This document shows positions 4,484 to 64,000 of a stretch of DNA of 64,000 nt, in pieces. The stretch covers positions 124,001 through 188,000 of the forward strand of contig RSEE01000115.1 in the NCBI GenBank assembly GCA_003971905.1, given 5' to 3'. The translations under genes and the position numbers were made by a program. The DNA is from Moniliella sp. 'wahieum' (taxonomy: Eukaryota). Each line of letters begins with the position of its first letter. Positions within the stretch are counted from its first letter, which is position 1. The notes under the pieces are model-generated. The model had not been told where the DNA came from and did not search any database. It saw only the letters and a program-made list of their open reading frames with translations.

Positions 4484-4765
4484 TTATAATGATTGCATTG
4501 GCTGGTTGTGTTGTGCGGGGGGGTAGGAGTATCAGATGTAAATGTAAGGGGGCAGACGCAAGGAGGCGCCCCGCGCGTCGGGAGCGCAAGGGGGGTGGCT
4601 GTGTTGTGTCGCCTGGTGTGCCCCCGCAGCCGCGGATGGCCGGTGGCGCTGTGCGCAGCTGCGGCTTAACCGGTAACCGGTAACCGGCCTAGCTTAACCG
4701 CGCTGAGGCTGCGCACTAACCCCGCCCGCCCCCTGGCATGCGCTGCTGCAGGCGGCTGCGATGCA

Positions 4766-4773
4766 TGACGTCA
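4766..4773. promoter_or_regulatory. CRE / ATF-CREB palindrome TGACGTCA upstream of the ALDH gene
   Basis: Perfect consensus about 360 bp upstream of the ATG; function inferred only. Confidence 0.4.
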
Positions 4774-5038
4774 TCCATCCGCCCTGCTCCACCCCGCCGG
4801 CTGCGCGCACCAGCACACTGTGCCCGCCGGCTAAACGCTACAGCCCGCCCCACCCGCTGCCGCTGCTCCCATCCCGCCGGCTTTGGTGTCTTGTCCGCGG
4901 CTCTCCGCCACTGAGAGATTATTGCGACTGCGTCTCCTGGGGCGCTGTCGGCTCCCCTCGGCTCCGTTGCGGTCTCTGCGCATCCTCCTTTACAGCGTTA
5001 CCCTCCATCATATGCATCCCTCCATGCCCACATCGCGT

Positions 5039-5086
5039 CCATATAAATATCCTGGCCATATAAATATCCTGTCCATATAAATATAC
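5039..5086 (+). promoter_or_regulatory. Triple tandem TATA-box-like unit (CCATATAAATATCCTG) in the ALDH promoter
   Basis: Three 17-bp-spaced copies of CCATATAAATAT, 45-90 bp upstream of ATG 5131. Confidence 0.65.
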
Positions 5087-5130
5087 ACCCCCCGTGTCTG
5101 CCCTCCACCGCCACCGCCCCCTGCCCCACC

Positions 5131-6971: not shown

Positions 6972-7739
6972 TAGGTCACTTGCATCCGTTGCATTCGTTG
7001 CTTTCGTTGCATCGGTTCCCTCGCACCACACCACCACCCACAACCACTCGGATTCGTTCCTACCCATCCTGCTCTCAGCCTACCGTGAACCCATCCATGG
7101 TGGGAAACCACGAACCCCTTCCACTCACAGATCGCTTATGAATCTCGCATGCCCCCCCCCTCCCCCCGCCAGTTTTGCTCTTTTTTCCCCTTTTCTTTTT
7201 CTTTCCTCCCTCGCCACACCTCCTAGCTACTGCACCGGCGCTGTCAATCTCGTCTCGTCGGCGCGTACCTCCTATGCCTTCTTTTGGAGTTGGTGCCATT
7301 GTTCCCTTGACGCCTTCTTCCTAGTTCCTTGCTGCGTTCAGCTTAGGCTGCCTTGCCTTCCATACCTTCAATACCATGCTGTTTTTTTCTTTCTTTTTTT
7401 CGCTTCGTCTTCCGCCACGGAGTGCGGTGCAGTAGAACACAGCACCCGCCAGACCAGGATCCACGCGCCCCGCACCAAGTACCAAGCACCAGGTACCAAG
7501 CATACCATGCTAGATGCGGAGGACTATACTATACTAGACCATTGACCAGTTCCCCTCTATCCTCCTTGCTTTGGTTCAACATGTCATTCCCACCGCGTCA
7601 GACACTCCTCCCTACTCCCCCTCCTCGGCTCGGGTCTGGGCAGGGGACACATCAACCCCCGCCTGCCGCCGTCCACGGCTAACGTCTAACCTTGAAGCTT
7701 GAAGCTTGAAGTGCGACATGTGACATGTGGCATGTGACT

Positions 7740-10700: not shown

Positions 10701-11084
10701 CCAAATTGGTCTGTCACCAACAAGTCCGATGTCCCTTCGAGTGTGACCAGCGCCGCGACCGGGTCGACCACCCCCGCTTCCTCTAGCGCAAGCAGCATCG
10801 CACCGATCCAACACACGCTCAAGCAAAGGGAACTGATCCAGCACCCAGCGCGACACGTACTGCGACGTAGCTTCGCGCCGTAACGCTTCTTCCTCCTCGG
10901 GCCCACTGGGCGGGACATAGGATGCCACCTCGGTGGCCAGGGCGGCGAAGACCGAGGGCGGGAGCAGGCCCGTCGCCGTCCCGCTCGCCCGCGCTTCGTC
11001 CAGCACCCGGTCGAGGGAGGCGAGCAGCGGCGCGAGCCGCGCGTACAGCTGCGGGATTGTGCCGGACGCCGCCGGTTGGGCCAT
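7740..11084 (-). CDS. HPR1: THO complex subunit 1 (THOC1/Hpr1) with a long coiled-coil/low-complexity C-terminus
   Basis: LRMANEMLRRLSK, FPLGDRSASNLKGEFN, FYALFWATQTFFRNP, FYPKYLT, DPSFRRQVLFQILILLQYL, EHAWITWKNE match THOC1 motifs; intron about 9842-9753; several frameshifts; 3' end uncertain. Confidence 0.88.
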
Positions 11085-11506
11085 GGCGCGTAGGGGAGGT
11101 GGAGGTGGAGGTAGTAAGTGGATGGGCGAAGCGCCGATTGGATGGGCGAAGGCCGCGCGGAATTGCGTCGGGACTGCATTCCGCCGCGGCAGGCGAGGAT
11201 GGATGGTAGCTGAACGTTGAACGTTTCTATCCTGCGTCTCGTGGCCACCGCTGGCACCATCCAGCCTTCTCGCCGCCATCCATCCCATCCCATCCCCCAT
11301 CTCCCGTCAAGTCAGGCCGTGATGGTTGCGAATTAGCGTGCTGTGTATATCGCAGTCGACGGGCCCAGGAGGAGGCTATGGCATGCGGTGCAAAGAGTGG
11401 CAAAGGGTAGAAATACAGTGGCACATCTATTGGCTGTGGGGCAGCCGAGACGCTCGCTCGCCCGCTTGGCCCCATCCAACCGAACCGCGAGCAAGCGCTC
11501 CGCGCA

Positions 11507-19043: not shown

Positions 19044-19655
19044 GATGACGGAGCGGGGCGGAGGATGGGATGGGATGGGAGGGGGGGTGGAGGACCGACG
19101 TGGGAGACGGTGCGAGCTGAGACGGGCGGAGGATGATCGTCTGACAGCTACGGATGGCTCTGGGATATGACTCGTGGGATGAGGATGAGGATGAGGATGT
19201 GGTTGGGGATGGGATGGGATGGGATGGGTGTGGGGGCTGATCGGCCCGAGGGAGACGGGGCAGGAGGAGGGAGCAAGAGGGGAGCAGCCGTCTGGATAAC
19301 GCGTACCGAAGCAAGCTTGACGGACGCTTGACGCTTGACGCTTGACGGTTAGGGCACAGGGCAGTGTGCATGCCAGGTGCCCGGGAAGACAGAATTCAGC
19401 AGCCGAGGCACTGCACCAGCGAGACGGTGCTGCAAGGGGGCAGTGCGCTGCGGCCGCCAGCCGAGGGCGGCAGGGGGGCGTGTGCGGCTGCGGTTTCCCG
19501 CGGCGGTGCACACACACTGCCGCGTGCCGGGGTGGGGGCGACGCGGGCGGCGCGGCGGCAGTGGCGGTGGCGTAGACACCAACATGCACTCGGCCCCCCG
19601 ACTTATGCGGTGGGCACCTCCAGCCTCGAGCAACACCTCCTCCGCCGCCGCCGCC

Positions 19656-22854: not shown

Positions 22855-24447
22855 ATCGCACAATCGCTCCGTCGCTCCGTTGCTCCATCACCATTGTACA
22901 CTATTAGTGCCCCTAGGGCGCATTTTCTTGATTCACACCACCGCGAAGCGAGGAACGAATGCATTCTGTGCTGCTTTTCTTTCTTCCGTACCTCATCCAT
23001 TCAATCATCTGCTGCTGCACCCCCTAACAGAGATTCAAAGGATAGAACCAATCCCGCACCGCTGGTGGCAGTATAGAAGCTGGATGCGATGGTGACTTGA
23101 AAACGAAAGATGAGATGAGACTGTTGTCCAGCCTGCTCCACCCAGCAGAGACACGAAGAAAGAATGCTGGGCTGGAGTCACTACTATAGTCACTAGTCAT
23201 GTCTCATGATTCATGAGCCGCGGACAAGGCCGGGGTCAGAGTGGTCTCGGTCAAAAGCTCTCAATATATCCAGACTCGCAGTCCGCAGTCCGCAGTCCGC
23301 AGTCCGCAGTCCTCTCTCGGGAACGGAGGACCAAGCTTCAAGTCAGCGCGGCCTTCCTAACAGAGAGAGGCGATTGTTGGCCTTTGGACCTCGCGGTCTA
23401 CTACTTGCTAACGCCGATGTTTTCCAGCTGCGCCTTCGGGCCCCGACCACCGAAAGCCAATTTACAGCTTGGAGGGTGTGCAACAGAAGCACGGATGGGT
23501 GAGAAATCGGTGCCTGTCCGAGCAAGTCTGAGATCTGACGTCGGACAATTGTGAGGTATTGAATATTGAGGTTCGACGGTCGACCCTGTCCAACCGCTGA
23601 TCTCCTACTGCCTCGGACTTACGGGGATGTCCGCGGAAATCCGGGCCGCCAGTCACGACTTAGTCATGTCGGTGGAGAGGCGGCCTTCGCGGACAGGGCA
23701 AACCCCACAACCGCCTGAGCCCCCGCTTATCAGCGCTCAGCCTCATGCCGCAGCAGGTGCACGGACCTCGTCGCTTGTGTTTCCTCTTTTTCCCTTTCCC
23801 TTTCCATGTGCTCTTCGTGCTCAGGATGTGGCAATCTGACCGCCCCTGGAGCCAGCTCTTGTCTGACTCCAGCGATCTGATGCTGTGTGACCATCTGTGA
23901 CTCACGGGGTCACAAATCATTTTGTAATCAGATCCCCTCGACATGAGCGAGCGAATCGGAAACGCGAGCACACAGGAGCACAAGAAGACACAGGCGCAAG
24001 CGCTATTCGCGCAAGACAGCGGCCTCCGGCCGAAGACTGAGTACAGTCGCAGAGAAGGCCGGTCTGGGACAGTCGCTCTCCTCTCCACGCATCCCACCCA
24101 GAGCTGAGCCACACGCGCACAAGCCTCGGAGAGACAAGGACAGGACCAGTGCACGGCCCATCCTCTCTTGCCTGTGCAACGCTGAAGAGACACGTTGCTT
24201 CGTAGCATCGAGAGTTGCTAGTTGCTGCCGTGCTTCCCCCGTGTCACATGTCAGGACCCACTGTACCAGCGAGTATCCCCTCTCCGCAGTGAAACGGGAT
24301 TCTCAGGGTGTTTCCATCCCCATCTCTGGCTAGTAGGCTACATATATAGACGTTTTCCTGCTGCGTCTCTCCTCCTTCTGCTCTCCTCGTCATCTTCCCA
24401 CCCGCGTCCGTCTGACTCTCATCTCTGCCTCATATCCGCTGTCGACC

Positions 24448-32735: not shown

Positions 32736-35700
32736 AATCTGATCCTCCTATGCATTTTATACTACTACTCATTCTAGCATCATCGAATGCAGTGCAATCG
32801 TCTTCGAGGGTACTTTTTTGCATTGCGATGGGTCAATATGGAGTTGGGGGCTTGCCATTGAGAGGTCTTTGGAATGTATAGCCGCCAAATCACTCTTCAG
32901 TCTCAGAGTCGTCTGTGTGGTCGTCGTCTTCGCCCTCTGTGCCCTCTGTGCGCCAAAGTGACTGCAGTGCCTTCGTTGTCCCGTGCATCCTCCTCGTCTG
33001 TTATTTATGCCCGGGTTACTGCGATGTGACGGTGGTGGGTGAGTTGTGCACGAGTCGCACGCCAGGCGGTACAAATTTCAGGGTTACCTTGCGGAGAAGA
33101 TGCGTGTCCGCCATGCCCTCGAAATTCTCCCATGCACTCGTCCAGCCCAGTAGATAGTTTGCGGGGCGAGATGAGCGAAAAAGTCAGATGACCGTCTGCT
33201 GGACGACAACGGGGTGGCGACGTACTTATGATCGGACAAAGAGACAGTGAAGATGGCACTGAAAATGTCATTACAGCGCTTGCTGCTGTTCAAGCGCTTT
33301 TGATGAGAACGGGTTATTGTGGCCATATTGCGAGGAGAGCAACGCGGGAAAAGGCGGGGCCAATACGTACCAGGATTCGGATGCGCTCCTTGGCGACAGT
33401 GAACTCTTGGTGAGAGAGGATGCGACAGTAGACTTGAAACTTATGACGCACGAAATCAGCCTGAAAGGCTGCAATTGTGCGCCTTCCGTAGCCTTGATCG
33501 ATACGGTGCATGCTCTCTGGCAACTGGACGCTGTGTTATTTTTAGTAGATGGTTTAGGGGTTTGGGTTACGCACCTCATTCAAATAGCTTTTGCTGAGCG
33601 TTATACCAGCCTCTGGATCGTTTAGCCTGCGCAGATGTGATGCAGGCTCTCCGGGATCTGAACGATGTTTTATTTGTTAGTAGATATGGTTTAGCGGTTT
33701 GGCTCAACGCACCTCATCATTCAAATAGCTTGTGCTGAGCGTTGCCCGCCTCTGGATGATGTTGGCTATGGCCCTCTTGAAGGTGGATCTAGTGGGGGTG
33801 GCGCCGAGAGTGGTAGGATCTCAGCGACTAGCATACCTATCTTGAGACGAAGCTTATGAGGAGGGGAAACCAGCTGTGGGCATGGGTTTGTGCAGTCTCG
33901 ATGGGGGGATTCTGGATGGAAGACACAACTTTGTCCGGCTCGTCAGTAGAGAGCATCTCGTGGGCCTCGTCTGGGAACTAGAGGTCCGTAGCCGAGTCGT
34001 TGATGCAGGTTTCGACGTTAAGCGTCGTGGCGATACCATCCCAGACTTTCTGAATGAGGACGGGTTGCGACTAACCCCCCCTGTTCCACGGCCCCATTTG
34101 CTCCATCTCTCCTCCTTGTTCCATCCATCCCCCTTGCTTCCCTTCTCCCCTTCCCTTACTCCACCTCTTCCTACTAACCCCCCGCCGCTGCCTTTTGCAC
34201 CATCGCTCCCTTTTGCGCCACCGTCCCCATTGGCACCACCGCACCTCTTCGAGCCAATAGTGAAAGCCCTTGACGACGGCAGACAAAGCGCATACATCCA
34301 CGCTGACACTACCGTTTGCTGTGGCAGGGGGTGGTCGCACCGGCAGGATCCAGTTGATCTGCCTTGAACATTGGCCAACATGCCACGCTGTGATGGCAGC
34401 CCTTTGTTTGGCAACCCGGACGCTGTGCGCATCCTTTGTCTTAGAGATACGCAATAGACACGCAAGTTGTCCACAGCAACGCTGGAAAGGGTAGCTTGAA
34501 CTTGCCTTGGAGATGGAGGCATTGTCACAGAAGATACTGGAGCCACCAAGCAGCAGAGCCCCGTCCGATCTGAAAAAGAAGCGTGTTGTGTAGTCAAAAG
34601 GCTTGGGAGGGATAGTAAGAGACTGGGAGAAAAGGGGGCTTTGTCAGTGACAGGAGCGTTGCAGGAGCAAAACACATACGCCTGAGCTCGCCTGTAGGGG
34701 ATTTGCTACCAGTGGTAGTAGGCATTGAGCGCGAGTGTAACCGTCAGAGTGGCAATGGTCACTCCCCCCGTGACGACGGGGGGGTGCTTTGGCATGGTGG
34801 TGTAGGCGACCAAGAAACATGGACGCGTCGAAGCGGCATTGTCATATCCCCCGATATGGAGCTGACTTCGTAAGCCGTTGCACATGCAGAAGCGAGAACA
34901 GTATAGAATTGAACGATATAGGGTTCCCATGAAAAGTTGGGGTCGTGCAACATGGTAGTAGAGACAGTGCATATAGAAAATCCCATTTGACGTGTCGCAG
35001 CGCGTATTCATGCCTTGGACGGAGCAGTACGTCATACCCTTTTGACAACCCGGATCTTTGTATTTCAGTATAGGATAACGATGATGTCGGTGAGGCTTCA
35101 CTTCAACATTGAATGGATAGTACATTTGAGAGATGATTGATACTCGATACTCGATGTGTTTCGACGATATGTGACTGTGATAGAGAGTACTGAAGCTATA
35201 GGGCTATTACTACTAGCCACGCGCCTCGCAACGCGCACTCTCAGCTCCTCATCTCTCTCTTACATGCCCCCCCCACTACTCAAAACACCGTCTCCTCCCT
35301 TTCCAGTCTACGTTCCCCAGAGACTAGAGGTCTCTCTGATCTCAGATCTCAACACTTTTCTTGGCAGTGTATATGCGTCATGCCAAGATGCTCGAAGCTG
35401 AAGAAAGCTCTCATCAGAAACGATTATAAGTAGGGTTGCACTCTCTCTTCTGTGGGGGCTATATTAAAATCTGGCGAATTCCTCCAAAGAAGTGTTCTGC
35501 GATCAAACGTTGTGGGCAAAAATGGAGCATGGGGCTAGCGCCCGAAGTCGTGCCAAGGGTTTTGGGTCAAAATCTGACCCAAAGCCCTCTTAGGCCTTAG
35601 ATCGTCGGCTGAGCGCTGACAGCTGACAGTTCTTGCGTTCATATGTGGTGCGAGTGTCGATAATGTTTTGCCTTCGATAATGTTTTGGCCACTTGTCAAA

Positions 35701-35781
35701 TATATAGGCTGGCTTGTTTTGGAGCTTTCTCATCTGTGTACATCATCTCAGTATATGTCGGTGTCGAGGTATCGAGGCCGG

Positions 35782-35820
35782 CAGGCATCACAGGCATCAC
35801 AGGCATCACAGGCATCACAG
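35782..35820. repeat. (CAGGCATCA)x4 minisatellite
   Basis: Seen directly. Confidence 0.9.
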
Positions 35821-38729
35821 CGCCTCAGCGCGCTCAGCCTGAGCGGCTCAGCACGCTCCAGATCAGCCTGAGCGCCCGGTCTGAGCGCCTGAGTACTCTT
35901 GTCACATGTCACCCCCACCCCAGGCCTCAGGCTGAGGCCCCAGCAGGGCGGGAGTACTCAGGACTCAGTACACTCTCGCAAAAGCGCGTAAGCAGCATTC
36001 ACTTGATTGATGATTGATGATTCACAATCGTCTTTTGGTATCACTGCATCACACCGATACCACGCCGACCTGCTTGGCGCCAACCCAAATTGTTTCCTCT
36101 CGTCATATTATGGCGCAGTGCATATGAACCAACACATAAACGAACCCACAGTCCGATTGCGGGCACTTCTCTGCCTAGATAACTGTGAGTATTGATAGTG
36201 ATAATGAGCTGAGAGAGCGTGCAATGCTTGGCTTGGCACTGTCCAGGGAACGATACCCTGCCTCTGGCAACCCGCATCAAGCCTATGCATGATGATCGTC
36301 GAAATGGCCAATGATTAATGATTAACGAACCGCAATACTGTCGTCATATAACATGAAACCCTGTGTCTCCTTTTCGATCGCGTCTCGGATGAGATCTGAG
36401 ATCTGAGAGGCCGAAGGTCCAAACGCCGAGAATGTGACGTTTGATCGAAGCAATGTGCGACTCCTGGGTAGTGAGGCTTCGGAGGACCTCAGTCGTGGCG
36501 CTTGTTCTAGAAGAGAGAGTTGCTGCTAGAACTGGCCCCACATTATACCACCAAACCTCTACGACAATATTGCTTGTTGGCTGTCTCGGCATTGAAAACA
36601 GAGCGCCACACACTTCCACATTGCAAGTTGTTCACTCCACCTTCTCTCTCATCCTATTGCCACTTGCTCTCTCCATTCTTGAGAGAGCCTAACAGTTTAG
36701 GAACAACGACTTTCGGCTTTTCTCCAACTCGCATTCGACGTTTCCGAAAGACGAAGACGTTGAAGAGACTCTTTGGGACCGTGGTTTGTGACTTTTTGCC
36801 GTACACTGTCCCCTCTTTACTTTGCGGAACTCGAATATGCCCTTTTTGGATGGCAAAAAACTCGCTGTGTCAGGCCTGCATCAGTGGCCATCGAGCAACA
36901 AATGCGCCCATTCTGATCGCCAACTGTTCCAAATTCGCCCTCGAGGGAGGCCCTGTCGTGTCTGTCGCTTTGCCGTGAACGCGCCAAAATGAGGAGGAAG
37001 GCAAAGAAGGGGCGCCACGGGACGATGCACTGCCTTGACCTGCCGCCACCTCTTCATACAGTCCTTCCGTCTCTCGCCCGCCAGGAACGAAAACGCCGAG
37101 AGGCTGCTGCAGACGATCAAACAAGCAAGCTGGGACATCTACTTCCCTCATCGAGGCCGAAGCCTCCCTAGTGGAAGTTCGGCGGACGGGTTTATCCCCT
37201 ATCCCATTGGTACCCCGAACCTGGTTCGTCAGCCTACGCAAACACTCCAACCTTTACATTCGTCGCCACCCCCTTGATATCCCAAGAATTGTATGGTGTA
37301 CAGCCGCCTACACACGCAGAGGCTTCTTATTCCTCGCCCCACGAATCAAGTGCCCCGCCGCCTCCGTTTCTTCGCCTGAATGGTACCCGCCACCATCTGC
37401 ACACAGTGAGTGACTCGGCTTTAATGGCGTCGACCCTACCCGAAATGCAGCCTGTGGCTCCTCTGCCTAGTAGCACCAGCGCACTAGAGGCGGGGGTTGA
37501 TTATCACCGCACCTCCAACCTGGAGCTGAACGACATGCCTGAGTTACCGAAATATCGACCATTTACCGTCTCCACTTCTTCATATCACGACTGTACCACA
37601 TCTGCTTATTCGATCCACTCGCATCCCAACGTTTCTTCTCACCTTAGTTTTCGCATTCGAACCTCCCGCATTCAAGCCACGACTATCGCATCACGACCGG
37701 TGGGATGCCCACCGTCATATCTTTTCCAAGCTCCAAAACACCATCACAAATGACTTTCCAGCCACCCCCTGACGAACAGCTCCGGCATAACACAGAGCAG
37801 AATTTTCTCCCCGTCTCCGCGTTGGGTTGGCAAAGCCCTCAAAGGGATCCAATTCTGCAAAGGCCATGGCAACAGGAAGGGCTCCCCTCCTTCCTGACTT
37901 CCCCGAGACCGCCTGGCCTGCACCCATCATATACCGCCTCTTCCCTCTATCCTGGCAGTTGACCCTGTTGGGAGCACCTCTTCCTTCCCGCAGTCTCTCG
38001 CCCAGCCTGAGGTCCCAGAGGGAAGCCTCCCCATCGCCCGCGGACCACCTTCCTTCTCTTCATCTCTTTCACAGGCACAGCCGCAAAGGTCCAAAAAACG
38101 TTGAAGTATACTGTTGTGCTACCCCGCATCCTTTCAAAACTGCATCGATCGTCTTCCTCTTTTGCATCTTGACACTTCCAGAAGAGCCCATAGCCTTGAT
38201 TTGGAAGACCCCTCAGATGTGAATATCGTGTGATTGTATATATGGTGTATATGTTCCTGCATAGATCAGGGACTGGTCCATCCCTTCCTTGGTAGCATCG
38301 TTGCATTAGTGTACAAGTGTGTGGGGGACCCGCATCGTGGAGCGTACGGGTAGTAATCATCTTTTAATGAAATCCAACAGGCTTGACTAACAGTAGAACA
38401 GGTCACTTGAAAAGAAGATTCATCGGATGTTGAGTCGACTGAGAATGTGCAGGTGACTTATAAGTGGACCACATCAAGCTGAAAAATCAGAATGTGCTAC
38501 CACATACGACATGATCACAGGAGGCAAGTGTGCGCGGGGGGGGAGGGGGAGGGGCGTCAACACGATGTCGAGAATGCTAGAGGAATTGGGCCGTTGGCGA
38601 CGAAAACTCTTCTCTTTTCTATGGGACCGTGGGTATGAGCCACATATGATCACGGATGAGCTTCCAAATAATTGCCTTCGCTAGCTGCTGTCATCAACAG
38701 AGAACATTAATTATCTCTATTCTGGATCC

Positions 38730-38955
38730 ATATTGACAGAGCTTAAGGATGGGACAGAGAAACGCTACACCTAAACCGAACTATTCGTCTTGCGTGATGG
38801 GTTACTTGGTAGCGCCACCAAGGTTAAGGAACCAGGGGGATCGCCATGATATCAGGACCCTCAGGTGGTCGCCATCCGTTCCCGTATACCCTAGGTAGCG
38901 CGGTGGACACGGATGACCGTGGTAGACATCCGAGCGTGGAACCATTTCCATTGAG
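38730..38955 (-). repeat. Decayed dispersed repeat family, copy B (inverted)
   Basis: Reverse complement aligns by eye to 29996-30220. Confidence 0.8.
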
Positions 38956-40373
38956 ACTCAATAGCCAAATCCTTCCAAAAGGAGACGCCCTTTACCATGA
39001 TAGATTGTGATTTATTGTGGGGGGTCTCTCCACCACTGGTCTGTCTCGGGTGCCCCAAACAATGGTTGAGCGCACAGTGCCTGTCTAAACATCCTGAAAG
39101 GAAACTCTTCTTCATTAACTTCGTCGTGTGAGTGCTGGAACATCACTGCGTCGATCTGTGCACTGAAGATGTATAGATGATACTAACGTCAATGTTGACG
39201 AAGATGATGGATGGGATCTCGCGACGGCATATCATGATACGCATAGTGCATAGAAGGGAATGTAGACGGAGTCCCTCCTTCTACCGTTGTTGCGACTGTT
39301 TATATGTGGATTTTGAGTATTACAGAGACGGTGGCTGTGATTTGGTGACGAACAACTTGCCAAGGCGTGCTTTTGTGAACGTTGAGATGGGATCACAACA
39401 GTCCTAGAGTCCTCCTGTTATGGATTTTGGGCGATGTCGTCTCGCATGACACCAATATAAACTGCACAACCAATAAGATTCAAAAGAGAGGAAGAGAGAT
39501 ACAAAAGTGAAAAAACGAGAGCCAATGCATATATAACACATAGTTGTGTGGTTTTGCGAAGGGCAGAGACAGAACTACCAAAAGCAAACACAACTAATGA
39601 TTAACGATTATCGATTACGGGGGGAAAGGAATCTAGCTCCGACGGATGCGCCACGGCCATGTAGCTCGCCATGCTGTAACGAGATAGGCTTACTGCTTAT
39701 TTCCCCCGATGCACCTGATGGTGGTACAAAAATGAACGGTGGTTGGGTTTTAAGTTACGGAAGAGTCGGCGTTCCAGGCTCTTGGCTTTTCAATGGTCGA
39801 CTGTGTGTGTGTTTTTTTCTACGGCTAGTGCGTCCAGCTATTAAACAGATGGCCGAGACAGGCGGCCGAGACAGACGGCCGAGGTACATTGTCAGGCCCG
39901 GACTGGGGGGCCATTGGTCCGAGCCCGCCATGGAAGGGTAACTTGAATCCCTGCCAGCGCATTATCGTGCTGGCATCTTGTCCTAATGGCTATAGTGAGT
40001 GACTAGTGACTGGCGCATTGCTGAGCCGCGCTGGCGCTGAAAGCCGAAAACTGAAACGCCCAGTTGTCTTGCACAGCTGCGGACGGTTCCCAGGCGTACC
40101 CCCCGGCGAGGGCTGTGTACCATACTTGGTCTCGATAATCGATAATCGGTAACCGGACAGCGCTTGATCGATGATCAGCAGGAGAGGGTGTTAGCATGTG
40201 ATGCGCGTGACAGAGGATGCGATGATGTCACGTGCATCATACGCACCAACGTCATGATGCATGATCTAGTTGCTCGAACTTGCTCCTGGCGGGTTTGGGG
40301 GGTGTTGTCGCCTCGCCCTTCTCTTTCGTCTCACCACGAACTCCTCCCTAGTCGACTCTACCTTCTGGACGCC

Positions 40374-43000: not shown

Positions 43001-43538
43001 GCACAATGGTTGCTTGGTTTCGGAGCTTGTGTATCCTATTCTGTACAGGAAACGTATGAGCTCCCTTTCGCGGCCATGCGGGACCAGTTCGATCAGTGCT
43101 CAGCGCTCAGCGCGTTGAACGCAATAGATGTTTGCATGTACCTTTGTCCGTTGGGTTGGGTAGGCCACTGGTGGGTATGGCTGCGCTCACGCGCGCGACA
43201 TTCACTCTGTAGCATGTCCGCCCGTAAAGTTTACTGCACAGATAGTCCACCACTTACATTTTGCCTCTACTTACTGCACCAGCTTGTTTTTCTTCTCGGG
43301 GACTTGCGAGATCAGCCGTTTAGCTTTAGCACGTTGGGGGGGAGGGGGCGCTGTGGACAAGAGCCTATATGATCGGATGTGGCTTAGGCGTTTTACCGTA
43401 CCTTCACTGTCACCGGTGTTACTTTCTGATCAGAGTGCAACCTGTAACTTGCGTCGAATACCCGGGCCGACGGGGAGGAGCGTTAGTTTAATGATGTTGG
43501 GCAAACTCCTTAATCAGAGGGAAAATAAAGGGTCAAGC

Positions 43539-43832
43539 TGTCAAGATGAAGACGCGGGTCGTTACCGACGCTACCTACTAGAAAACAATGCGGAAATTGT
43601 ACGACCAGGCAACGTCAGGAACAACTACGGATGGAGGAAAAGGAAGACATAAGCACGAAGTGCTAGTTTAGTAGTATCGCTTATTGTACTCCTGGAATAG
43701 TGATCCCATTGGTATCTGGCGCTGAACTGAGGTAGTCTTTATCTTTGGATCTGCGGGCCTTACCAAGACCGTTTTTATTCATCAACAGGAGGTGGTGAAA
43801 ACGAGAGGCCAACAACTTATACTACCCCAACA
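43539..43832 (-). mobile_element. Possible short LTR-like segment where the copia element is cut off
   Basis: TG..CA ends (minus strand TGTTGG...TTGACA) and an internal AATAAA; no TSD and no match to the 5' LTR remnant. Confidence 0.25.
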
Positions 43833-45660: not shown

Positions 45661-45739
45661 GAATGAATTACTGGGGCAAAAACCTAGGTAAGATCTACCC
45701 CGGGATGGAATAAACCGGAGGCGGAATAGGCTGTGGGCC

Positions 45740-46145: not shown

Positions 46146-47390
46146 TGACACGCCGGATAAACAGGCTCAGTGCATTGAGCTCAGCCGCCGAACAAGAGCG
46201 CACAGTCTTCGGTTAGCCAGACGAGGGAGGTATTCAATGCTAAGATGGTACGTGAGATCGTGAGAGCTGTGGGAAAGAGCTGTTGAGAAGATGCAAGTTG
46301 TGAAGAACCTTTTTTCATCAACAGCAGTTGAGATAGATGAGTGAGAAGTCTCTGACATTATTAACATGCAGTGACCACATGTCTGGATGGCCAATAAGTG
46401 AGAGTGTCATTCATTGTGTCCACACACCCAAAAAGCTTCCAATGATTGCCTATTGTGGTGGCTGGATGGCTCATCGACCCATCGGCATCTCCTTCTAAGA
46501 TCAAAAAGCATATTAGAACCATCCATATGATAGAGGAGCCATTCTTACCTAGCTCTCGTTCTGTTGTCCGCCTCTGTGGTCTTTGAACCGCGCACAATCG
46601 CCATCTTGAATAAGGTATTCCCCTGGGCACATAGCTACACCCGGAAGCCACATATCACGAAAAGCGCATATGCCCCCCAAAAGAACAGCCTCCTAGAGGC
46701 GTCATGCATCATGCCCGCGGCATGCATCATGGAGAAGCGATTGAATATTGACGAGACATTGACGAAGTTGTTGCGACGATGTCTGCCTTACCGATCGTGG
46801 TGCACTTCCAGCCTGAGTGCCTGAGCCTCAGGCCTCAAGCTGAGGTCTCACTAGTCCGAGGCACCGCGAGCTCCGAAGATTGCTGATGCGCGCGTAGCGG
46901 CGTAGGCCAAAAGGACTTCTCCTGTAGCCCTCGTCCTGCTTTTCCTATAATACCACGAACGCTTATCGATTATCTCTCGCCCGCGATCGATCGCCTATGC
47001 TATACTGTTCCAAACGCTTCAGTCTGAAGATCCCTTGCGGCCTCTATAGCCGGGTGGACCAGACGTTCCTACAAACTACCGTGGACGTTTGGCGTTTGGT
47101 GGCTACGATTTGACAATAAATCTTCGAACGTCTCGAAGGTTGAGTACGTTGAACATTATTGCGAGAGAGGGCGGAGCGCGTGAATCTTGAAGGCGGCATA
47201 TCTGGCGTCAATTTCAAATAGCCGCCACATTGGTAACACGGCGACGAAGGAGCGCAGGCTTGGGTGCCGGTGGGAGGGCGGGAGGCTTGGCGAGGCCTGC
47301 CGAGACCCAACAAAGGCCACCTGCCACATGCACCGTGCGCCGTCCTCAGCCCTGTGTAACTGATCGTTCTGATCCTTACCGCCTGAGCGT

Positions 47391-47508
47391 GAATTCAATA
47401 TTCAGTGTTCGACGTTCAATATTCAATGTTCAATGTTCAACGTTCAACGTTCAACGTTGAGTTCAACGTTGAGTTTCAACGTTCACGCGTTCACGTTCAG
47501 CGTTCACC
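47391..47508. repeat. Degenerate 7-mer array (GTTCAAC/GTTCAAT/ATTCAAT)n
   Basis: TCA/TGA recurs mostly every 7 bp over about 115 bp. Confidence 0.9.
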
Positions 47509-50500
47509 CTAATGCTCGGCCTCAGTGGGCAATGGAAAAGGGGGGGGACTTGCCATGACTGGCTTTATATCTCTTCAGAGAACTAAACTATTGTGGGAGA
47601 GGCGAGCAATAGCAGGGGAGGAAGCGGTGGAGATGCAATCGGGGACAGGCAACCCGGAGGCGCCATGATATCGACATGAGACCTGAGGCTCAGGCCTGAG
47701 GGGCAGGACAGAGGCGATATAACGCGTAACGGAGTCGCCTCGCGCAATGACAGTATACGTATGATACAAGTAGTACTTACAGCAGCACAGTGGATGCGAT
47801 GTATGTGGCACCCATCCGGACCTGGGAAACCCGCACCCGCAGCCGACCATCCCGCCCGCAATCTGCCATGGCCACTTGTGGGTGACCGGTGAGGGTTCCA
47901 AACAAGATAGTCACGTCCTCGATGAAGAGTGCGCGCGGGGTAGCCGGTAAAAGCTTACATGTTACATGTTACACCTGCGTTACACGTTACGCTTACGCAT
48001 CGTACCTGTAAGCTTTTAAGGCATATCGCGTACGCGTAACGCGTAACGAGTAAAGCTAGTAAGTAGTAACTAGTAACCATTTGACGATAATCGATAATCT
48101 CCGATGGTCACATGTACACAGATATCTATGGCATCTGATGGGGGAAAGGGGATCTTCCGGGCATATATATCTGTTGGAGTGTGGGGTTTGTGTGACGTGT
48201 GACACATACGTGACATGCGATCACCCGTTAAATACTAACGTACCGACGTAAGGTAACGGTCAGCCGCTGCGATAAACGCTACGTGGTAACTAGGTAACTG
48301 GTAACCGGCGTCCGTGTCTTCAGGCCTCAGGCCAGGGCCGCAGGCTTCTTGCCATCCTCGCCCAACGATCGCACCGCAGCAGCTATGCATCGCAGGTATG
48401 TAATCACCCTTGCGGTGTCTTCAGCGGCGTGAAGCTCTTGAAGGTGAGCTTTTGAGCTGGTTGTTGACCGTTGTCGAACTGAAAAGCTGGAAGGCGCCAA
48501 GCTTGAAGCTTGGAGCTTGGCTAGTGCGCGCTGGTGCCGCCCGAGCCGACGTTGTCCGATGTAGAAGCTAGAAAAGGAGAACTTTTGGAAGAAACAGGGC
48601 AATAGTTTGTTTACACTTCGACCAAAAGAGAGCGCACCTCTTAATTCAATGTTTACCTTACCAGCTTTAAGCTTAAGCTTTGAGCTTTACCCGTCACACG
48701 TCACGCGTCACGCGTCATGCATTGTGCACTTGTCGCTTGTTCGATGTTATGCGTGCACCATGGGTGAGTGAGCATGATGAATGATGCAGATGATTAATCA
48801 GATGATTCAGGGTGCGTGCACGAGATGGGGGGACTGGAGGCGAGCGTGGGACCAGATGAGAACGATTTGATGCGTTTTGATATTGACCTTCATACCATTC
48901 AAGGCCACAGGAAAGCCCAGCAATCGCCGGCTGATTGGTCACTATCGTCCAATAGCAAGGAAGGCGATGCATCAGAGCATGAGAGAGCGACACCGTGCGT
49001 CGAGGCTTTTTTCTGCGAGTTTTGGGTTGAGTTTATATATCCGAACCAAGGATGACAAAAGCATCGTGAGGCGTATGATGAAGAGATTGATGAGAGAGAG
49101 GACTAGCTGCCAGTGTGGCGTATGGTACCTGGGGTGCAAAAATCGTAGCATTATATGGGGGGGCTGCTGTTAGTGGGGCGATGCAGCCTATATCATTTGA
49201 GTAGCCAAAAAAGAGAGTACTGAAAAGGCGGTGTGGAACACTGCTTACCCATACCAGTCGACACTAGCCCAGGCCCCAAGGCAGAAGGCCCTAGTGCATC
49301 CTACATTAGCAACAGAAGCATCAGAAGTATCAGAAGAATCGGATCTCTAATTTCAGAAGATCTCTCGGAGGCGCTCAGTACTCAGTGAGTCCGGAGCTCT
49401 GTACTCAGTATCGGCATACATGGCCACCCGGTTAGTGTTGGGCAACACTGCCACGCCATCTGCGCCGCATCGCACACACACACGCGGGGTTAATAGAAAA
49501 AAAACGTATAGTACGTTTTTCGTACGTTATAAAAGGTTTACGTTCGGTATAGTGCACTCACTGTTGTGTTTCTGGTTTCTCGCTCCTGGTTGCTAGTTAC
49601 GCTTACGCGTTACGGGAAATGGGTGGGTAGTAGTGCGTTACGCGTTACGTGTTACATGTGCTAGGCTAAGCGCTAAGCTAAGCGCTAATTCCCACATCTT
49701 CCGCCTGCCTCATGCATCATGCATCCTATTGTATCACCGATGATCGATGCTATTGATTTGATGCAAACGTGCAAACCCAGTGCACTGCCCTCTGCGGGCA
49801 TCTGCGACATGGTGGCAAGACGACGGGCGGCCATGTAACGGAGTACTAGCTAGGGACTAGTGCGTGACAGGGCGCGTGACGTGTGTGATGCGTGACGTGG
49901 GAGGACAGACCAGTGTAGGCTATCCGATGCATGATGCGTGATGGCGTTGTGTGACGCGGTGTTGCGTGTTGTTGCCGACTAGGTGCGGGAGACCCTGTAG
50001 GGCGGGGATCCCTAGATCCCTGGGGACCGGGGACGCAGCTGATGATATGATGGTCGGTGCGGCCGGGATGGGCCGATGATGGGCCGGTGATGAAGCGGTG
50101 ATGGTTTATCGGTAGGCTTGGCTAGGGCCTAGCGGGGCGCGATAGTAGATACATCTAACCATCTAGGTCATCTGTCATCTCGTCATCTCGTCATCTAGCC
50201 ATCTAGTCATCTAGTCATCCAGTTACTAGTCATCTGGTCCTAGGCGCGATGCTGCGTGCTGCTGCAAGCCACGTAGCGCTGCGCTTCGGCGCCGAAATCT
50301 CACCGGCTGCAACTGCGGCGATGGGTGGGGGGGGGGTTTTCAGGCCCTCCCCAGTCAGCGCACCAGCGCGGGGGCTGGCCGCTGGCCCTGAGCCAGAAGC
50401 CTGTTTATAAAAATTGCCAACCATCGTCCCTCGACAAGGGTGGTGTGGGCGAGCATCTGGGCCCAGGCCCAGCGCAGGTCTCAGATCCGTCGCACCCCAC

Positions 50501-51227
50501 CACTCTCTCAGGATGAGCGCTTTGTAGCACCCCTGCGGCGGCCAGGCTGCTTCCAGTTGCTGGTGGCCAGTGACCGCACGGTACCGCCTAACGTCTTACC
50601 GCGCGCCAGGCCTTAAGCCTTAGGCCTTAGGCCTTAGGCCTTACCGGTCTTACCGCGCCCGGTTGCGTTACATGTTCCCGGGCGTCGGTTACCGGATAGG
50701 TTACGTGGTACGGCAACGATCGAGTGACCATCGATCATCGGTCCTCGATCGATCAACCGATCAGCGATCACCACAGTATTAGTCGCTGTCTCGCTGGTTA
50801 TACCACAGCCCCCCCCGTTCCCCCTTCGAAACTAACCCACCCTACCGCAATACAGGTGCTCAGAGCGTGCCCATCTCAGTCTCAGGCGACCGCTGCCCAC
50901 CGAAGAGCACGAGCCTCTCACCCACCATTTCTCTGCCACTCCCATCTTTTCCCGCCCCCGCCTGCCCTCTCCCACGGTCTCTTCTTGTTTCTCCCCACCT
51001 TGCTTCCCGCTAATCTCTCTCGCTCTCAGCTGGCTCTCAGGCCTCAAACTCACATTCACGCCCACACTCTCCTCCCCCGCTCCGCATCTGCCTAGGCAAT
51101 CGCCGCTCTTCCAGCCGCCGGTCCGCTATCAGCCACGCCCCTTTTCTATAGCATTTTTCCTCCCTTCCCCCAAACCCGTCTCGCCGCCCTCCCTTTACTG
51201 CTTCATCTCTTCTGAGCTACCGTTTTA

Positions 51228-54148: not shown

Positions 54149-54639
54149 ATGGGTCGTGTTCGCACCAAGACGACGAAGCGCGCAGCACGGGTGCTCATTG
54201 AGAAGTACTACCCCAAGCTCAATGCGAACGACTTCCACACCAACAAGCGTGTGTTGGACGAGGTGGCGATTGTGCCCTCGAAGCGTCTGCGCAACAAGAT
54301 TGCCGGTTTCACCACCCACCTGATGAAGCGCATTGCCAAGGGCCCCGTCCGTGGCATCTCGTTCAAGCTTCAGGAGGAGGAGCGTGAGCGCAAGGTATGT
54401 ATTTGCTCGTCCTCGTTGTGGATGTGGATTGGTACTAACGCTTGGCACAGGACCAATACGTCCCTGAGGTCTCGGCTCTCGACACGGAGGCCAACGGTGG
54501 TCTCGAGGTCGACCCGGACACCAAGGCCATGCTCGGCGAGATTGGCTTTGCCTCGCTCCCGGTTACTGTTGGTGCGCCCATCACCTCGGCTCAGCCCGAG
54601 CGCCGTGGTCGCAACGTTCCTGGTGCTGGCCGTCGCTAA
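54149..54639 (+). CDS. RPS17: 40S ribosomal protein eS17
   Basis: [21 protein letters not shown]...[35 protein letters not shown] | intron 54395-54450 | [11 protein letters not shown]. Confidence 0.98.
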
Positions 54640-59300: not shown

Positions 59301-59505
59301 CCGTCACGCCACCTACCCTTGGCGCGCCAACCTTCCCTCGGACTGGGTGCCACGTCACCATTGGCACGGCGAACGAGAAGATTGCTCCGGTCGAGGCGCG
59401 CGCTTTGGCGGCTGCTTACCCTGACCACTTGCCCGCTGGCACGAAGATGCCAAGTTCGCACATCCTATTACGCTACAGGGTCAATTGGAGGGCATGATTG
59501 CGTAG
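56344..59505 (+). CDS. TRL1: Fungal trifunctional tRNA ligase (ligase, kinase, cyclic phosphodiesterase)
   Basis: PTLARG, IVARGYDKFFNVNE, motif I KENGCIIF, VTSKH, FELCDDAFEEHVL, EGFVVR, FYKVKFDEPYLMYRDWRE, P-loop PGIGKTT, VFADRNNH, HVTL-like CPD motif; intron about 56736-56792; many frameshifts. Confidence 0.95.
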
Positions 59506-61222
59506 CCAAGAAACGAAACGAACTGTGAACACCAACTAGGGGCACGGTGTTTAACAATTATAATCCGTCGCACACTTCTTCAGCTTCAGCAGCTGCGAGT
59601 ACGTAAAGAGAGATAGAACGCCAAGTCAGGAGCATCCGTCCATCCCAGGCCGGCCGCGCCCCAGTTTTAGATGGGGCCGGGGCATCATGTCCTTTGTGGT
59701 TGGCGTGGAGCAGAATAGGTGCAGCAGGTGGAGCCCGTAACCCCCGATACTCCATTGTAAACCCTTTGCCGCGGGAACTCAAGGTATGCAAGGCTGGTAT
59801 GCCCGGTTCAGATCGTACTTAGTGTGAAACTCCTCTGATCGTAAACGCACATGCGAATAGTGTTATGGGCAGGCCCCGGCGGCGGACTGGAGCCCGACCC
59901 ATAACTTGGGAGCGCTTTCCTTTGGAGGAGGACAGGCCATTCACAGTTAAATTGATCGAGCCTGAACACTGCTAGCAGATCCGAACGGCGCTAAAGACGA
60001 GCTCTTAGTGGCACTGGCATATGATACCTCTCAATCGGGACGTAGGTTCGCATATGGCAAAAGGCTGCCAATATTAAGTACCGGAACAAGCAGGACCAGC
60101 GTGCCTGTAGTCTGTTGTCCTGAAGGGTTGGCCAGAGGTTGACGCACAAAGATAGGGTAGGACAGGTCCTGTCTGACGGAACAACTCAACTATAGGCTTG
60201 TAGGATCCCGCAAGATCACAAAGGTAGGAGACTGAGAGCTGGAGATCGACGGCAATGGATGCCCGGTCAAAATACTGAAAGGTCAAAAGGTGGTCCCTGG
60301 AAGCAGGTCTGAGGGACTTTTGGCGAACGAAAAGGAACAGGGGAGTTGCCTGATGATCGATGATCAGTCAACTAACGATGGATTAACAAAGGATATTGTA
60401 CAAGGACAAAAGACGAAGAAAGGAAAAGACGAAATGTCATAGTTTGGCTGATCTCCTCGCTCCATGTCTAATTTCTTCGTCCCGAGCGTCTCTCGCACCT
60501 TCTCTGCTCTTCCGCTTTGCACCATGTCCTCTGCTCTTACTTTTTCCCCACGGACGATTGCTACATCCCTTGGCCTAATCCCGACTCTACTGGTCTCCCT
60601 CATTGCCTTATCCCCGATTGTGACACACGAAATGTAGTGAACGAAGGCGACGAAGTAGAAAAGGAAAAAACGAAATGACCCGCTACGGGGAAATGCACAT
60701 GGGCCAAGACGATCACAAGGGTCATATATCATGTATCATACAGGCAGGATCTATTAGGGATAGACAACGCACGAAGAAAAGGGAAACGAATCGAGATCAG
60801 TGCCACCCCGAAAGTAACACAGACCAAGTATAGAAAAAGGTTCCCCCACTCAGCCAGGAACGAGAGCCTCAATAAAATCAGAAATGTCCAATGTAAAGGG
60901 CAGGCTCTCCGCCCTGAGCTAGAAACGTAGAATGAATGAGGGAGAATCTCACAACGAAAACGAAACGCTCAGATCAGGAAACTGGTGTCTTACTTAGAGC
61001 TCATTTGCGCTCAAAACCAAAGACGAAAAATAATATTGAAGTAGGATAAAACCAGGGACTCAAAACGCTCACGATGCACGGATCACCTCAATCATCTCAG
61101 CCGCACAAAAGGGACTTTTGATCATTGATTCTAGTTGAATAGATTGATGGAAACATAAATGCTCCATTTGGATATAATGGAGTGCATGGGTTTGTTTAAC
61201 GTGGGTTCAGACAAACCATCTT

Positions 61223-62089
61223 TGTCACGGGCGGGCGCCGCCACGGGCCCGCCTGGGGTTTTTTGGGGTACAATCCCTTAGGCGACGGTAGGTCGACTCA
61301 CGGTAGTTTCGGGCTTGGGCTGGTTGGTGAATCCGAGCAGAGCTAGGACGAGGAGAGGCCTTTGGTGAGGCGGCTGCATGTGTGGCAAGGCTGCGTCTGC
61401 ACCGGCTTGGGCGTCACTGTCTGAAGCCACCGGGACTTAGGGACGGGAGGAGGCAACGGCGGACAAACACTGCCTTGACTGAGACTGGAAATCGACGCGG
61501 CCAGAGGAGGGCTCGCGCGACTGGACTGGCGGGTTTTGCTGGAGGAGAAGTCGGACGCTAACAAAAGCAAGCTGCCTGTACTGTGGATCAATTGGCTGAA
61601 AACGGGCAGGAGTCGGACAGGATAGGCGAGAGGGTAGACAAGGGGTTGAGACGAGAGATTGACGAGAGGGTTGAGACGAGAGTGGGGACGAGAATGGAAG
61701 GTGGGGGAAAGATCCCCATCAACCAGGGGTACAGGCAGGATCAAAAGGGAAACGGATACAAGAGGGGGGTGTAGAAAGGAAGACATGTCAAAGCGAGGTT
61801 GGTCGCCACAGGCGCGACCGAGAAAGGAAACGGAAACGGGGACGGGACGGAAGACGCCGCCACGGGACTGGAAGCTCGGTGGGCCTTATTACTTAGGCCG
61901 GCCGACTTGGGCTTGGGCGGGGGGCGACTATTGTCGCACGGAGCATTATGGCCCTTCGGCCACGATACTTAATTTAGCCAACCATCATCACACTTGGTTG
62001 GCCTTCGGAGTAAGCTCTACTGGACATGTGCGGAGCAGGCGGGCCTTAGCTTCGGTCGGACCATCTCGAGTCCGCCGCAGCCCGTGACA
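61223..62089. mobile_element. Solo LTR (867 bp) with a 5-bp target-site duplication
   Basis: Ends TGTCACGGGC...GCCCGTGACA (10-bp perfect inverted repeat), flanked by ATCTT at 61218-61222 and 62090-62094. Confidence 0.92.
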
Positions 62090-62544
62090 ATCTTAGCTTT
62101 GAGAGCCTTGACGTAGACGTAGCCTAGGCAAGGGAGACAAGGGGAGAGGATGAACTCGGCTGGATCGCCCAATCGCCGTCGCTCGTAACACGCATTAGGG
62201 AGGTCGATGGACTATATGCACTGCGCGTTCTTTATTTGACCCCCAGGAGCCATCCAAGAGTCATCACATATGTCCATGTCATAGAGGGCAAAATAGGGCA
62301 GCGTGGTCAAGACCACATTAGTATAATAGTGACTAGCGAGGGATTATCGATTATTACGAGTTGTTATACTGTGTGAGAGGACACGGCGCATCCCCGATGG
62401 AGAAGAGCGCTTTTAACATTATGGGTCCTTTCTTGTAAGTTACACCCAAAAAAGAGCCTTGCTCACAAAAAGGGCTATGTCTACGGCTAGTAGGCCAATA
62501 TAATGCTTACCCTTCCTCTCTCCTCTGGATCACACGTCCATTTC

Positions 62545-62632
62545 ATTGACAGAGCTTAAGGCTGGGACAGGGGAACGCTACGTCTAAACCTAACCGTTCA
62601 TCTTGCGGGGTTACTTGGGGCGCCACTAAGGT
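62545..62632 (-). repeat. Decayed dispersed repeat family, copy D (inverted, short)
   Basis: ATTGACAGAGCTTAAGG.TGGGACAG..AACGCTAC..CTAAACC..GGGTTACTTGG is nearly identical to 38732-38810. Confidence 0.85.
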
Positions 62633-64000
62633 CATATGCTTACCCTTCCTCTCTCCTCTGTGTATTTGATGCAGTTCTAACAAAATGATGGTAGGTGGGA
62701 GACGCCTCCAAAAGCACAGGGAAATGAAACACTGAAGAAACAATGGGCACATCATCATATGTAGACTCGCAAATGGATGAGTGACCGCCGCATCGTGGTG
62801 GAAGCCCACTGCACTCTTAGGACGTGCTGGTGATGAGGCTGCACACACTGGCGTGAAGACTGTCATCGGAGAGAGAGGAGAGGTTGGCCGCCCACTCAGT
62901 AACTGAGCGTTTTTGATGGTTGTGAGAAGTTCAGGCACGTTCAGATATGATGTTGCAACCGGCGAGAGATGCACGATGGTTAACGCTGAAGAGGTTTAGC
63001 GTTTAACGTACGTTTAACACTTATTAACGTTTAGGCCTTAGGACGTTATGAGAGGGGCTTGTCGAGCGCACATGAAAACCTTGAACAAAGACCGAGGTTA
63101 AGAACATATTGAACGAACGCGTGTATGTACATTGAATTGAGACTCATACTCAATCTTCGATGGTGGAACACAAAACGCGGCCTCTGTAAGCTGTATCGGT
63201 TATCCACTTCCAGCTACTGAATATTGATTGAAACATCATGTCGAAGCAAAGAGAAGGGAATGATTAATGAAGGGGAAAAGGGAGAAAAGTGAGAAGGTAG
63301 AAATGACATCTTGTGAGAGCAACACAGGATGCATATGGGCGCGTGGCTTGGCCATATGGCGTATCATATCACATGCAATCACACAGCACTAACCACTAGT
63401 CGGTCACAGTCACATGTCACACTCACTAGGCAACGGCAGCATTGTTTAATTTAAGGTGGCCTGAGGCCCTCAGAGCCATGGGAGTGGGCCGCTAGCCTGA
63501 GCGCCCACGCATATCATGCGCCATGCTGAGGCTACTGAGGCACCCCGTGCGAACATCGAGTGCACCGAGCCGAACGTGCAGACTGGTGCCGGCGGGATAG
63601 AGACATGCGAGACCCTGCGACACCTCATACTGAAACTGCGGGAGAATTTTGTCACAGGTCACCGGTCACTGATCGATGATGGATGGTCATCGTTCACCTG
63701 CCTATCACAAGATCACACGAACCACGCCGCGTCGAATTTAAGCTTTAAGCTTTACGCGTTACGCCTGCATAAGCTTTGTTTAAATGTCCGCTGTCACATA
63801 CATCGCAATGTGACATGCAGGATGCATGGCAAGGAGGGGCAGTATAGATGTAGCCTCAGGCCGCAGGCAGCGCCTGGCCACCGCTGCTCAGTATGTCTCA
63901 GAACTCAGTTCCAGATCACTTTGCCTGGTTTGCAATGCTGTGGTCTTTACATGCATTACACGTGACGCATTACTGTCGCCTTTCGTGACAAGCCTGCCAG

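Follow-up and report, generated by a model that had tools for sequence, protein, structure and literature searches.

Strict 7-bp insertions at TNA sites in a fungal contig, interpreted as probable scars of transposon excision

The 64,000-nucleotide stretch analysed here (positions 124,001 to 188,000 of contig RSEE01000115.1 of Moniliella sp. 'wahieum', hereafter the window) carries a real and strict mutational signature: at sites centred on the triplet TNA, N being any base, 7 bp have been inserted again and again, as a second, directly repeated TNA and a 4-bp palindromic linker. The junction rule, its specificity for TNA and for 4 nt, its intergenic location and its presence in other fungi are read directly from the DNA. 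A preliminary description of the window had proposed one process recurring at TNA-centred 7-bp sites, for which slippage alone would be insufficient, and had offered transposase footprints as one cause; unit counts and the flank rule uphold the former, and the junction classes with their two-mirror rule make footprints the best reading of the repeats. We consider it probable that the units are excision scars of a cut-and-paste DNA transposon with a 7-bp target site duplication (TSD) that leaves through flank hairpins flush with its ends.

The minimal unit, TNA followed by a 4-bp palindrome and the same TNA, occurs 70 times in the window against 2.66 ± 1.54 in 100 shuffles (maximum 9). No comparable excess is seen for the remaining 15 XNY triplets at linker length 4 (3–15 seen, 2.3–10.8 in shuffles) or for TNA at linker lengths 2, 3, 5, 6 and 8 (seen/shuffled 13/9.8, 14/9.1, 0/2.7, 3/0.6 and 1/0.1, respectively). 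Pairs of TNA show a spacing peak at 7 only (214 versus 138); 78 of these 214 pairs enclose a 4-bp palindrome, and because the centre base is kept in 70 of the 78 and complemented in 6, the second TNA is a direct copy. As linker, 15 of the 16 possible 4-bp palindromes are in use, and the centre of the triplet is C or G in 40 of 57 clusters, a share equal to that of background TNA (1101/1650). Odd palindromes centred on TNA are enriched (269 versus 186 with arms of at least 3, 17 versus 3.2 with arms of at least 6), and those centred on CNG are not. Odd palindromes with 6–8 bp arms, in which two inverted TCA/TGA stand at spacing 6, were noted at 35838, 35931, 46826, 47023, 47688 and 63467; their excess is slight (12 versus 6.1 for GNC-centred arms of at least 6).

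The flanks of 37 isolated dimers indicate the source of the linker. Flank and linker match at positions 1 and 2 in 24 and 24 dimers on the left and in 21 and 19 on the right, whereas matches at positions 3 and 4 are near background (10 and 9 on the left, 12 and 14 on the right). The better side matches exactly 2 bases in 20/37 (11% in shuffles) and the other side matches 0 bases in 27/37. From this two-base, mostly one-sided match we derive two structures, ab TNA b'a'ab TNA cd and the mirror form ab TNA cdd'c' TNA cd, in which ab and cd are the flanking bases and primes mark complements; the insertion thus contains five bases in forward copy and two in backward copy. At non-palindromic parent sites the two mirror classes number 22 and 18, against 0.20 and 0.17 expected, and control cores give 1–3.

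All the arrays named in the preliminary description are present where it placed them. Exact primitive period-7 arrays of at least two copies number 40, against 5.0 ± 2.1 in 60 block dinucleotide shuffles of the window; TNA is present in 31 of them (20% in shuffles), and in 25 some rotation of the unit is palindromic (10% in shuffles), with TNA at the centre in 24 of these. Arrays of periods 6, 8 and 9 likewise exceed their shuffled numbers (72/16.8, 9/1.3 and 7/0.6 seen/shuffled), so that of the proposed combination of period 7 and TNA it is the TNA and palindrome content that is distinctive, while the fold excess of period 7 is not special: TNA occurs in 20/72 period-6 and 4/9 period-8 arrays, and palindromes in 2/72 and 0/9, respectively. 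Three of the earlier examples do not follow the palindromic rule cleanly, that at 19327 having a non-palindromic linker, that at 23204 one mismatch, and that at 35616 being a plain 7-bp duplication with a GAC-centred palindrome. The Ustilago maydis intergenic 7-mer, said in the preliminary description to fit the same frame, has 0 copies in tandem form in the window. Along the arrays at 47391-47508 and 49638-49660 the linkers drift (ACGT/ATGT/ATAT and CGCG/CGTG/CATG), which fits CpG decay and hints at methylation of these spacers.

Ordinary slippage of pre-existing heptamers, with palindromic ones favoured, would account for the excess at periods 6, 8 and 9 and for six plain non-palindromic 7-bp duplications, and long pure arrays probably grow in this way. 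In most isolated units, however, no more than 12 of the 14 bases are repeated, and the match is to a single flank. The dimer-flank and mirror-class counts refute slippage as the sole cause, and we regard it as a very improbable explanation of the signature.

When iterated, the rule predicts chains in which the left linker copies the left flank and the right linker the right flank. We scanned metagenome contigs with a 21-letter pattern in which three TCA and the inner linker bases were fixed and the rule-bearing positions left free. At least 118 matches were found, representing 93 distinct sites among the matches listed; the two-sided rule is obeyed by 42/118 matches and, among those listed, by 35/93 distinct sites, where chance would give 1/64 (p 1e-38). 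Among the same listed matches, the flanks of the obeying sites are mutually unrelated, and periodicity ends directly after the 2-base flank in 22/35 on the left and 18/34 on the right. On the left side of the listed sites, a direct copy together with a palindrome is found in 45/93 and a direct copy alone in 15, which again argues against slippage. The same pattern in prokaryote genomes gives 6/94 obeying sites (Fisher p 1.4e-7 against the metagenome), itself more than the 1.5 expected, partly through bacterial heptamer arrays. Such intergenic arrays, in a TTCAA frame and obeying the two-sided rule slightly above chance, were observed at loci L112, L208, L220 and L239. In the metagenome sites listed, the rule is obeyed by 31/60 at 43–56% GC and by 4/27 above 56%.

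A domain scan of 205 of the 222 open reading frames (ORFs) listed from 28 metagenome loci returned fungal domains at most loci (a STE3 cluster, Zn2Cys6, chitin synthase, HET, NACHT, fungal kinase, P450) and bacterial domains at L056, L099 and L112. Taxonomic placement was made for three loci, the others standing as unplaced fungi: L109 encodes an exopolyphosphatase with 87% identity to that of Scleroderma citrinum, the nearest named protein to the IDO of L105 is from Agrocybe pediades (63%), and the STE3 of L086 is of basidiomycete type. The STE3 pheromone-receptor genes of L086 form a cluster (6607-11062) close to a long TCA heptamer array of mixed composition, and resemble an Agaricomycete mating-type region. 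Elsewhere than at the matched site, obeying loci hold 23 units against 10.1 expected in 161 kb, and non-obeying loci 6 against 6.0; the process is therefore present in the obeying loci, at a density about 13-fold below that of the window. Separate metagenome assemblies also yielded the same site. Given that the rule holds in metagenome loci, it is neither an artefact of the present assembly nor confined to this lineage, and the term lineage-wide, used in the preliminary description, is too narrow if anything, as the rule also holds in Agaricomycete-like contigs. Phage loci with the pure trimer have no multi-linker signature: at most 2 linker types occur in 44/44, a further point against slippage. 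In phage contigs L014-L018, L025-L027 and L037-L040 one ACGT-linked TCA/TGA trimer is dispersed in several copies, all with the same type of linker, and probably serves in protein binding or packaging.

Gene spans were outlined by hand on the basis of Pfam matches and ORFs. Of the 70 units in the window (57 clusters), 69 (56 clusters) fall within spacer outside long terminal repeat (LTR) sequence, which amounts to 31.8 kb, and 1 falls within the gene spans (29.5 kb); the LTR remnants (2.8 kb) hold 0 units where about 4.9 are expected. The clusters are themselves grouped, 32 of 55 gaps being shorter than 300 bp against 20.3 for random TNA sites. In two long spacers (p 0.0008 and 0.004) their distance to the following start codon is shorter than that of TNA sites; in two others (p 0.06 and 0.42) it is not clearly so. 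An exact scar stands at about 3.7% of the intergenic TNA sites of the window. The sites are as follows.

4667..4687: three TAA joined by CCGG, between EndoG and ALDH.
7691..7711: palindromic heptamer CTTGAAG in exactly three copies, with a second dimer at 7715-7729.
11211..11225: dimer TGA + ACGT + TGA, between THOC1 and DUF1674.
19323..19347: non-palindromic TGA array of period 7, which fits a 1-nt P variant or a decayed palindrome and not the main rule.
23190..24253: five scars (23190, 23529, 23560, 23730, 24244), upstream of the O-methyltransferase gene.
35342..36408: six scar clusters, all at most 1.5 kb upstream of the copper-fist gene, with none in the other 7 kb of the spacer.
39376..40264: six scar clusters, at most 1 kb upstream of the small Cys-bearing ORF at about 40375.
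43100..43113: dimer TCA + GCGC + TCA, directly downstream of the CTLH gene.
43533..43543 (+): period-8 variant with a full 4-nt palindrome taken from one flank and a single base from the other; four further sites lie at 46253, 47483, 48287 and 50207.
46702..51046: the densest field, 23 clusters, with a long degenerate TCA array at 47391-47508, arrays at 47955, 48037, 48067, 48088, 48701 and 49603-49719, and a TTA/GGCC array at 50617-50643.
54363..54372: the sole match within a gene span, in the RPS17 coding sequence, within chance expectation.
63003..63040: a period-11 junction at 63003 with both 4-nt palindromes kept, at a palindromic parent site, and at 63024 a chain of two unlike linkers, ACGT then GGCC.
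63218..63761: five clusters near the window end; in the TTA chain at 63738 the last linker, CGCG, copies the right flank.

Several genes of the window are frameshifted, namely ALDH (5522-6971), CTLH/FYV10 (41454-43001), the tRNA ligase Trl1 (56345-59505) and the copper-fist gene, and the assembly is therefore noisy; the first three frameshifts suggest assembly indel errors and not pseudogenes. That the units too are a sequencing or assembly artefact is nonetheless barely conceivable, given their distribution between gene spans and spacers and the adherence of many independent metagenome assemblies to the rule. An origin from intron branch points (CTRAC) was dropped, the units lying outside gene spans and on both strands, as was a purpose as three-frame stop codons, most units being dimers and TCA and TTA centres being equally common.

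The same distribution might suggest a lattice maintained by selection in promoters, where proteins would bind by recognising TNA every 7 bp, a regulatory system having been one suggestion of the preliminary description: the units are intergenic, absent from LTR remnants, clustered, and close to the next start codon in two of four long spacers. Insertion into open chromatin accounts equally well for this location, however, and array length differs by two units between the matching metagenome loci L121 and L122. Against a regulatory lattice stands the finding that each of the 15 linkers follows from the bases of its own flank, on one side only, as a binding code would not predict; we judge this explanation quite improbable, though later co-option of some scars is possible.

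We counted on both strands the junctions predicted by rival chemistries and compared them with shuffles. The flush-hairpin form, with two inverted bases, is found 78 times against 0.37 expected; a fold-back form with complemented centre 4 times against 0.23; the plain non-palindromic duplication 12 times over both strands (6 sites) against 0.53; the two hAT-type classes once against 1.43 and twice against 0.33; and a form with both ends trimmed 100 times against 81 ± 11. Both palindromes are kept at one site, 63003. Linker position 3 equals flank base a (0.58) and not its complement (0.12). The contrast between 6 plain sites and 78 junctions with two inverted bases leaves two earlier suggestions unsupported, a plain 7-nt staggered cut with fill-in and a P/Galileo-type plain 7-bp palindromic TSD without inverted bases. 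A two-hairpin model predicts a further class of period 8, with one full palindrome and one base of the other flank; five such sites are present against 0.28 expected, with the extra base as predicted in 5/5. The main class needs a target duplication of at least 5 bp, and the period-8 class (5 sites) together with the symmetry of T and A would favour 7 bp, a length deduced from the scars and not read beside an element.

Under the excision reading that we favour, the element would insert at ab-TNA-cd and duplicate 7 bp. On excision each flank would be closed into a hairpin flush with the element end, with the geometry of RAG and Transib, and a host nuclease of the Artemis/Pso2 type would open the hairpins 2 nt off the tip, so that the ends are left with 4-nt palindromic overhangs, cdd'c' on one and b'a'ab on the other. 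Element, hairpin intermediate and repair enzymes alike are postulated here to explain the junctions. In agreement with this opening step, the main position at which Artemis opens hairpins is +2 (2 nt 3' of the tip), with 4-nt palindromic overhangs as the result (PMC2175297). End joining, probably aided by a one-base match from the fixed T and A, would then keep one overhang and lose the other, producing one of the two mirror structures at a net gain of 7 bp. Such a scar would contain two fresh nnTNAnn targets, one a perfect palindrome, and repeat visits, later slippage and CpG decay could build arrays in which the first linker copies the left flank and the last the right flank.

Several observations weigh against this reading. 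Known hairpin footprints are less uniform, those of Ds in Candida comprising 28 types among 128 (PMC5873905). A second junction parse also fits 4 of the 5 period-8 sites; junctions of period 9 (6 sites) and period 10 (3 sites) carry one full palindrome, none with the extra bases that the model predicts; and the classes (2,4), (3,4) and (4,4) are empty at non-palindromic sites in the window. At the period-9 junctions 47141, 48051, 63947, 48430 and 35825 the two extra bases repeat ab or b'a', not cd, which the simple model does not predict. For about 3.7% of intergenic TNA sites to be scarred, visits must have been very numerous. Pfam searches found no transposase in 449 ORF translations of the window (300 long and 149 short; by a rough count 68 of the 218 ORFs of 75–114 aa fell outside the scan, mostly in the first 23 kb and at 51–59 kb) or in six frames of 31.2–35.5 kb with stops read as X, nor was one found among the 205 ORFs scanned from the metagenome loci; the matches in the window are to host genes and a copia remnant only. 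Neither an element having terminal inverted repeats (TIRs) together with a 7-bp duplication nor any element bounded by an nnTNAnn duplication was found in the 64-kb window or the fetched metagenome loci. Four 7-base indels separate matching metagenome loci, none a clean empty-to-filled event, with no excess at 7; the LTR copies in the window, 70–83% identical, are too diverged to polarise. As these searches yielded neither a transposase nor an element so flanked nor a clean pair of empty and filled alleles, a transposon as the culprit is what we infer from the scars.

That no element was found in the window or the loci counts in favour of a reading in which nothing inserts: a nuclease, whether of the host or domesticated, or else a repair polymerase reversing direction at a break end, would make a 7-nt staggered cut at nnTNAnn, fill it in and, before joining, add two bases in inverted order. 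The great uniformity of the product, the sharing of the rule by distant basidiomycete groups and the clusters near start codons in two long spacers would all suit such an activity. A single cut would then have to give both a 5–7 bp direct duplication and a flush hairpin, however, which insertion followed by excision does by known chemistry; iterated fold-back predicts a complemented centre, of which 4 are seen against 78; and fold-back at TNA itself cannot yield the period-8 class. We hold this reading, the main rival, to be unlikely. A broader proposal, that a RAG-like hairpin-forming activity across basidiomycetes, whether a domesticated transposase or an element-free nuclease, writes self-renewing 7-bp promoter insertions at TNA and so generates tandem repeats and regulatory variation, seems to us improbable.

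To return to excision by a transposon, the scars can be set beside the products of known systems. Footprints of Tc1/mariner and PIF/Harbinger elements have a constant middle that comes from the element ends. They share with the scars a short target motif on either side of a 4-base palindrome; in the window, by contrast, the middle is copied from the flank and takes 15 palindromic forms, and the target is not restricted to TWA. PIF/Harbinger elements, with a TWA target (another lead of the preliminary description) and a 3-bp TSD, were accordingly rejected, the centre being C or G as often as in background TNA. Transib duplicates 5 bp, whereas the window data would point to 7 bp with fixed T and A, and the product in the window is far more uniform than V(D)J or Transib joints, is germline, and is repeated, by extrapolation, thousands of times. 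What V(D)J coding joints and Transib share with the scars is a 4-nt even-centred palindrome made from the last two flank bases, with an opening that matches the main Artemis product (PMC2175297).

Flank hairpins are common to hAT, Transib, RAG and Muta1 (PMC5499845). The hAT elements (Ac/Ds, hAT7) resemble the inferred one in combining a target duplication with P nucleotides from flank hairpins, and hAT7 of rust fungi makes 7-bp TSDs (PMC12730594). Ac/Ds palindromes are, however, centred on the complement of the base adjoining the element (PMC5873905), and with one and two junctions in the hAT-type classes while the flush form abounds, geometry disfavours hAT7 as the element. Kyakuja, a KDZ element with 7-bp TSDs, CA..TG ends and no TIRs, is reported from five orders of Agaricomycotina including Boletales and Agaricales (PMC12730594), the groups nearest two of the rule-obeying metagenome loci, and its 7-bp TSD, the length that the scars would favour, makes this Agaricomycete element a lead as the candidate. 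None was found in the window or loci, however, and a search of PMC12730594 for the term Ustilaginomycotina gave 0 hits. No KDZ domain was matched in the window ORFs or in the 205 metagenome-locus ORFs; the window has 8 CA..TG candidates, no more than chance would give; and a 5-kb stretch at 31259-36320, bounded by a TAA-centred 7-mer and CA..TG, was rejected as an element, having no TIR (9/30) and no domain and being at chance level. EnSpm/CACTA, ESTA and Plavaka (the CMCT group) are grouped with Transib (PMC12730594), which makes flush hairpins plausible for the EnSpm/CACTA group; fungal EnSpm and Plavaka make 2-3 bp duplications (PMC12730594), which does not fit the scars, the duplicated part here being at least 5 bp. 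Cryptococcus KDZ elements duplicate 4–8 bp, mostly 8, CNIRT6 3 bp and CNEST TA (bioRxiv 2024.08.15.608186, 2025.05.19.654958).

The window is fungal, with a GC content of 57% and genes with introns. On the basis of Pfam matches and ORFs it encodes U1-C, EndoG, ALDH, THOC1, CLP1, ABC1, tropomyosin, a Myb protein, an O-methyltransferase and Rtf2, as well as copper-fist, CTLH, RPS17, glycoside hydrolase family 8 (GH8) and tRNA ligase proteins. The ALDH shows 82–87% identity to unnamed proteins only and about 60% to named proteins of Tilletiaria, Violaceomyces and Pseudozyma, and in a tree of 35 rows it stands on a long branch within a well-supported 16-row set with smut-related proteins, which places the window in a smut-related lineage without an annotated close relative; no ALDH relative was found in viral contigs. 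The copper-fist transcription factor gene (36836-38105, +) has its frameshift near the start, and 2.3 kb on, at about 40375, a small intron-rich ORF begins with Cys-bearing codons; the two are possibly a metal-response pair. GH8, encoded at 54913-55975 (-), is a family known mostly from bacteria, and horizontal transfer is possible. Retroelement remnants comprise a solo LTR at 61223-62089, bounded by TG..CA and with its 5-bp target duplication intact; a partial copy related to it, beginning at about 28765 (70% identity across 197 bp); and a decayed copia-type element at 43900-46170 (-) with a gag-like ORF, a Pol_BBD match at 43962-44543 and an LTR-like stretch at 45740-46160, to which pieces at 29760-30240, 38715-38980 and 62539-62632 are related. 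Five 33-bp repeats (32554-32717) and a 134-bp tandem pair (33507-33757) lie in an unannotated 5-kb stretch without scars or Pfam domain.

The signature was not found described in the literature searched, which largely left out subscription papers and Repbase reports; the chemistry is of a known kind, and its genome-wide, self-renewing, cross-basidiomycete form was not met with in that literature. Footprints have mostly been studied at single reporter loci, whereas here one exact footprint occupies a measurable share of the intergenic TNA sites and is met again in distant fungi. It is an old idea that much sequence change stems from elements that visit and leave; the scars, as a countable fossil record of transposon visits without a remaining element, would give it a direct test, and with it a rule-based route to new tandem repeats besides slippage. 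They also predict an nnTNAnn target consensus and flush-hairpin cleavage for an uncharacterised fungal transposase, possibly that of Kyakuja. Motif-finding in these fungi would take the scars for binding sites, and where they lie upstream of genes, as in some spacers, they may feed regulatory variation.

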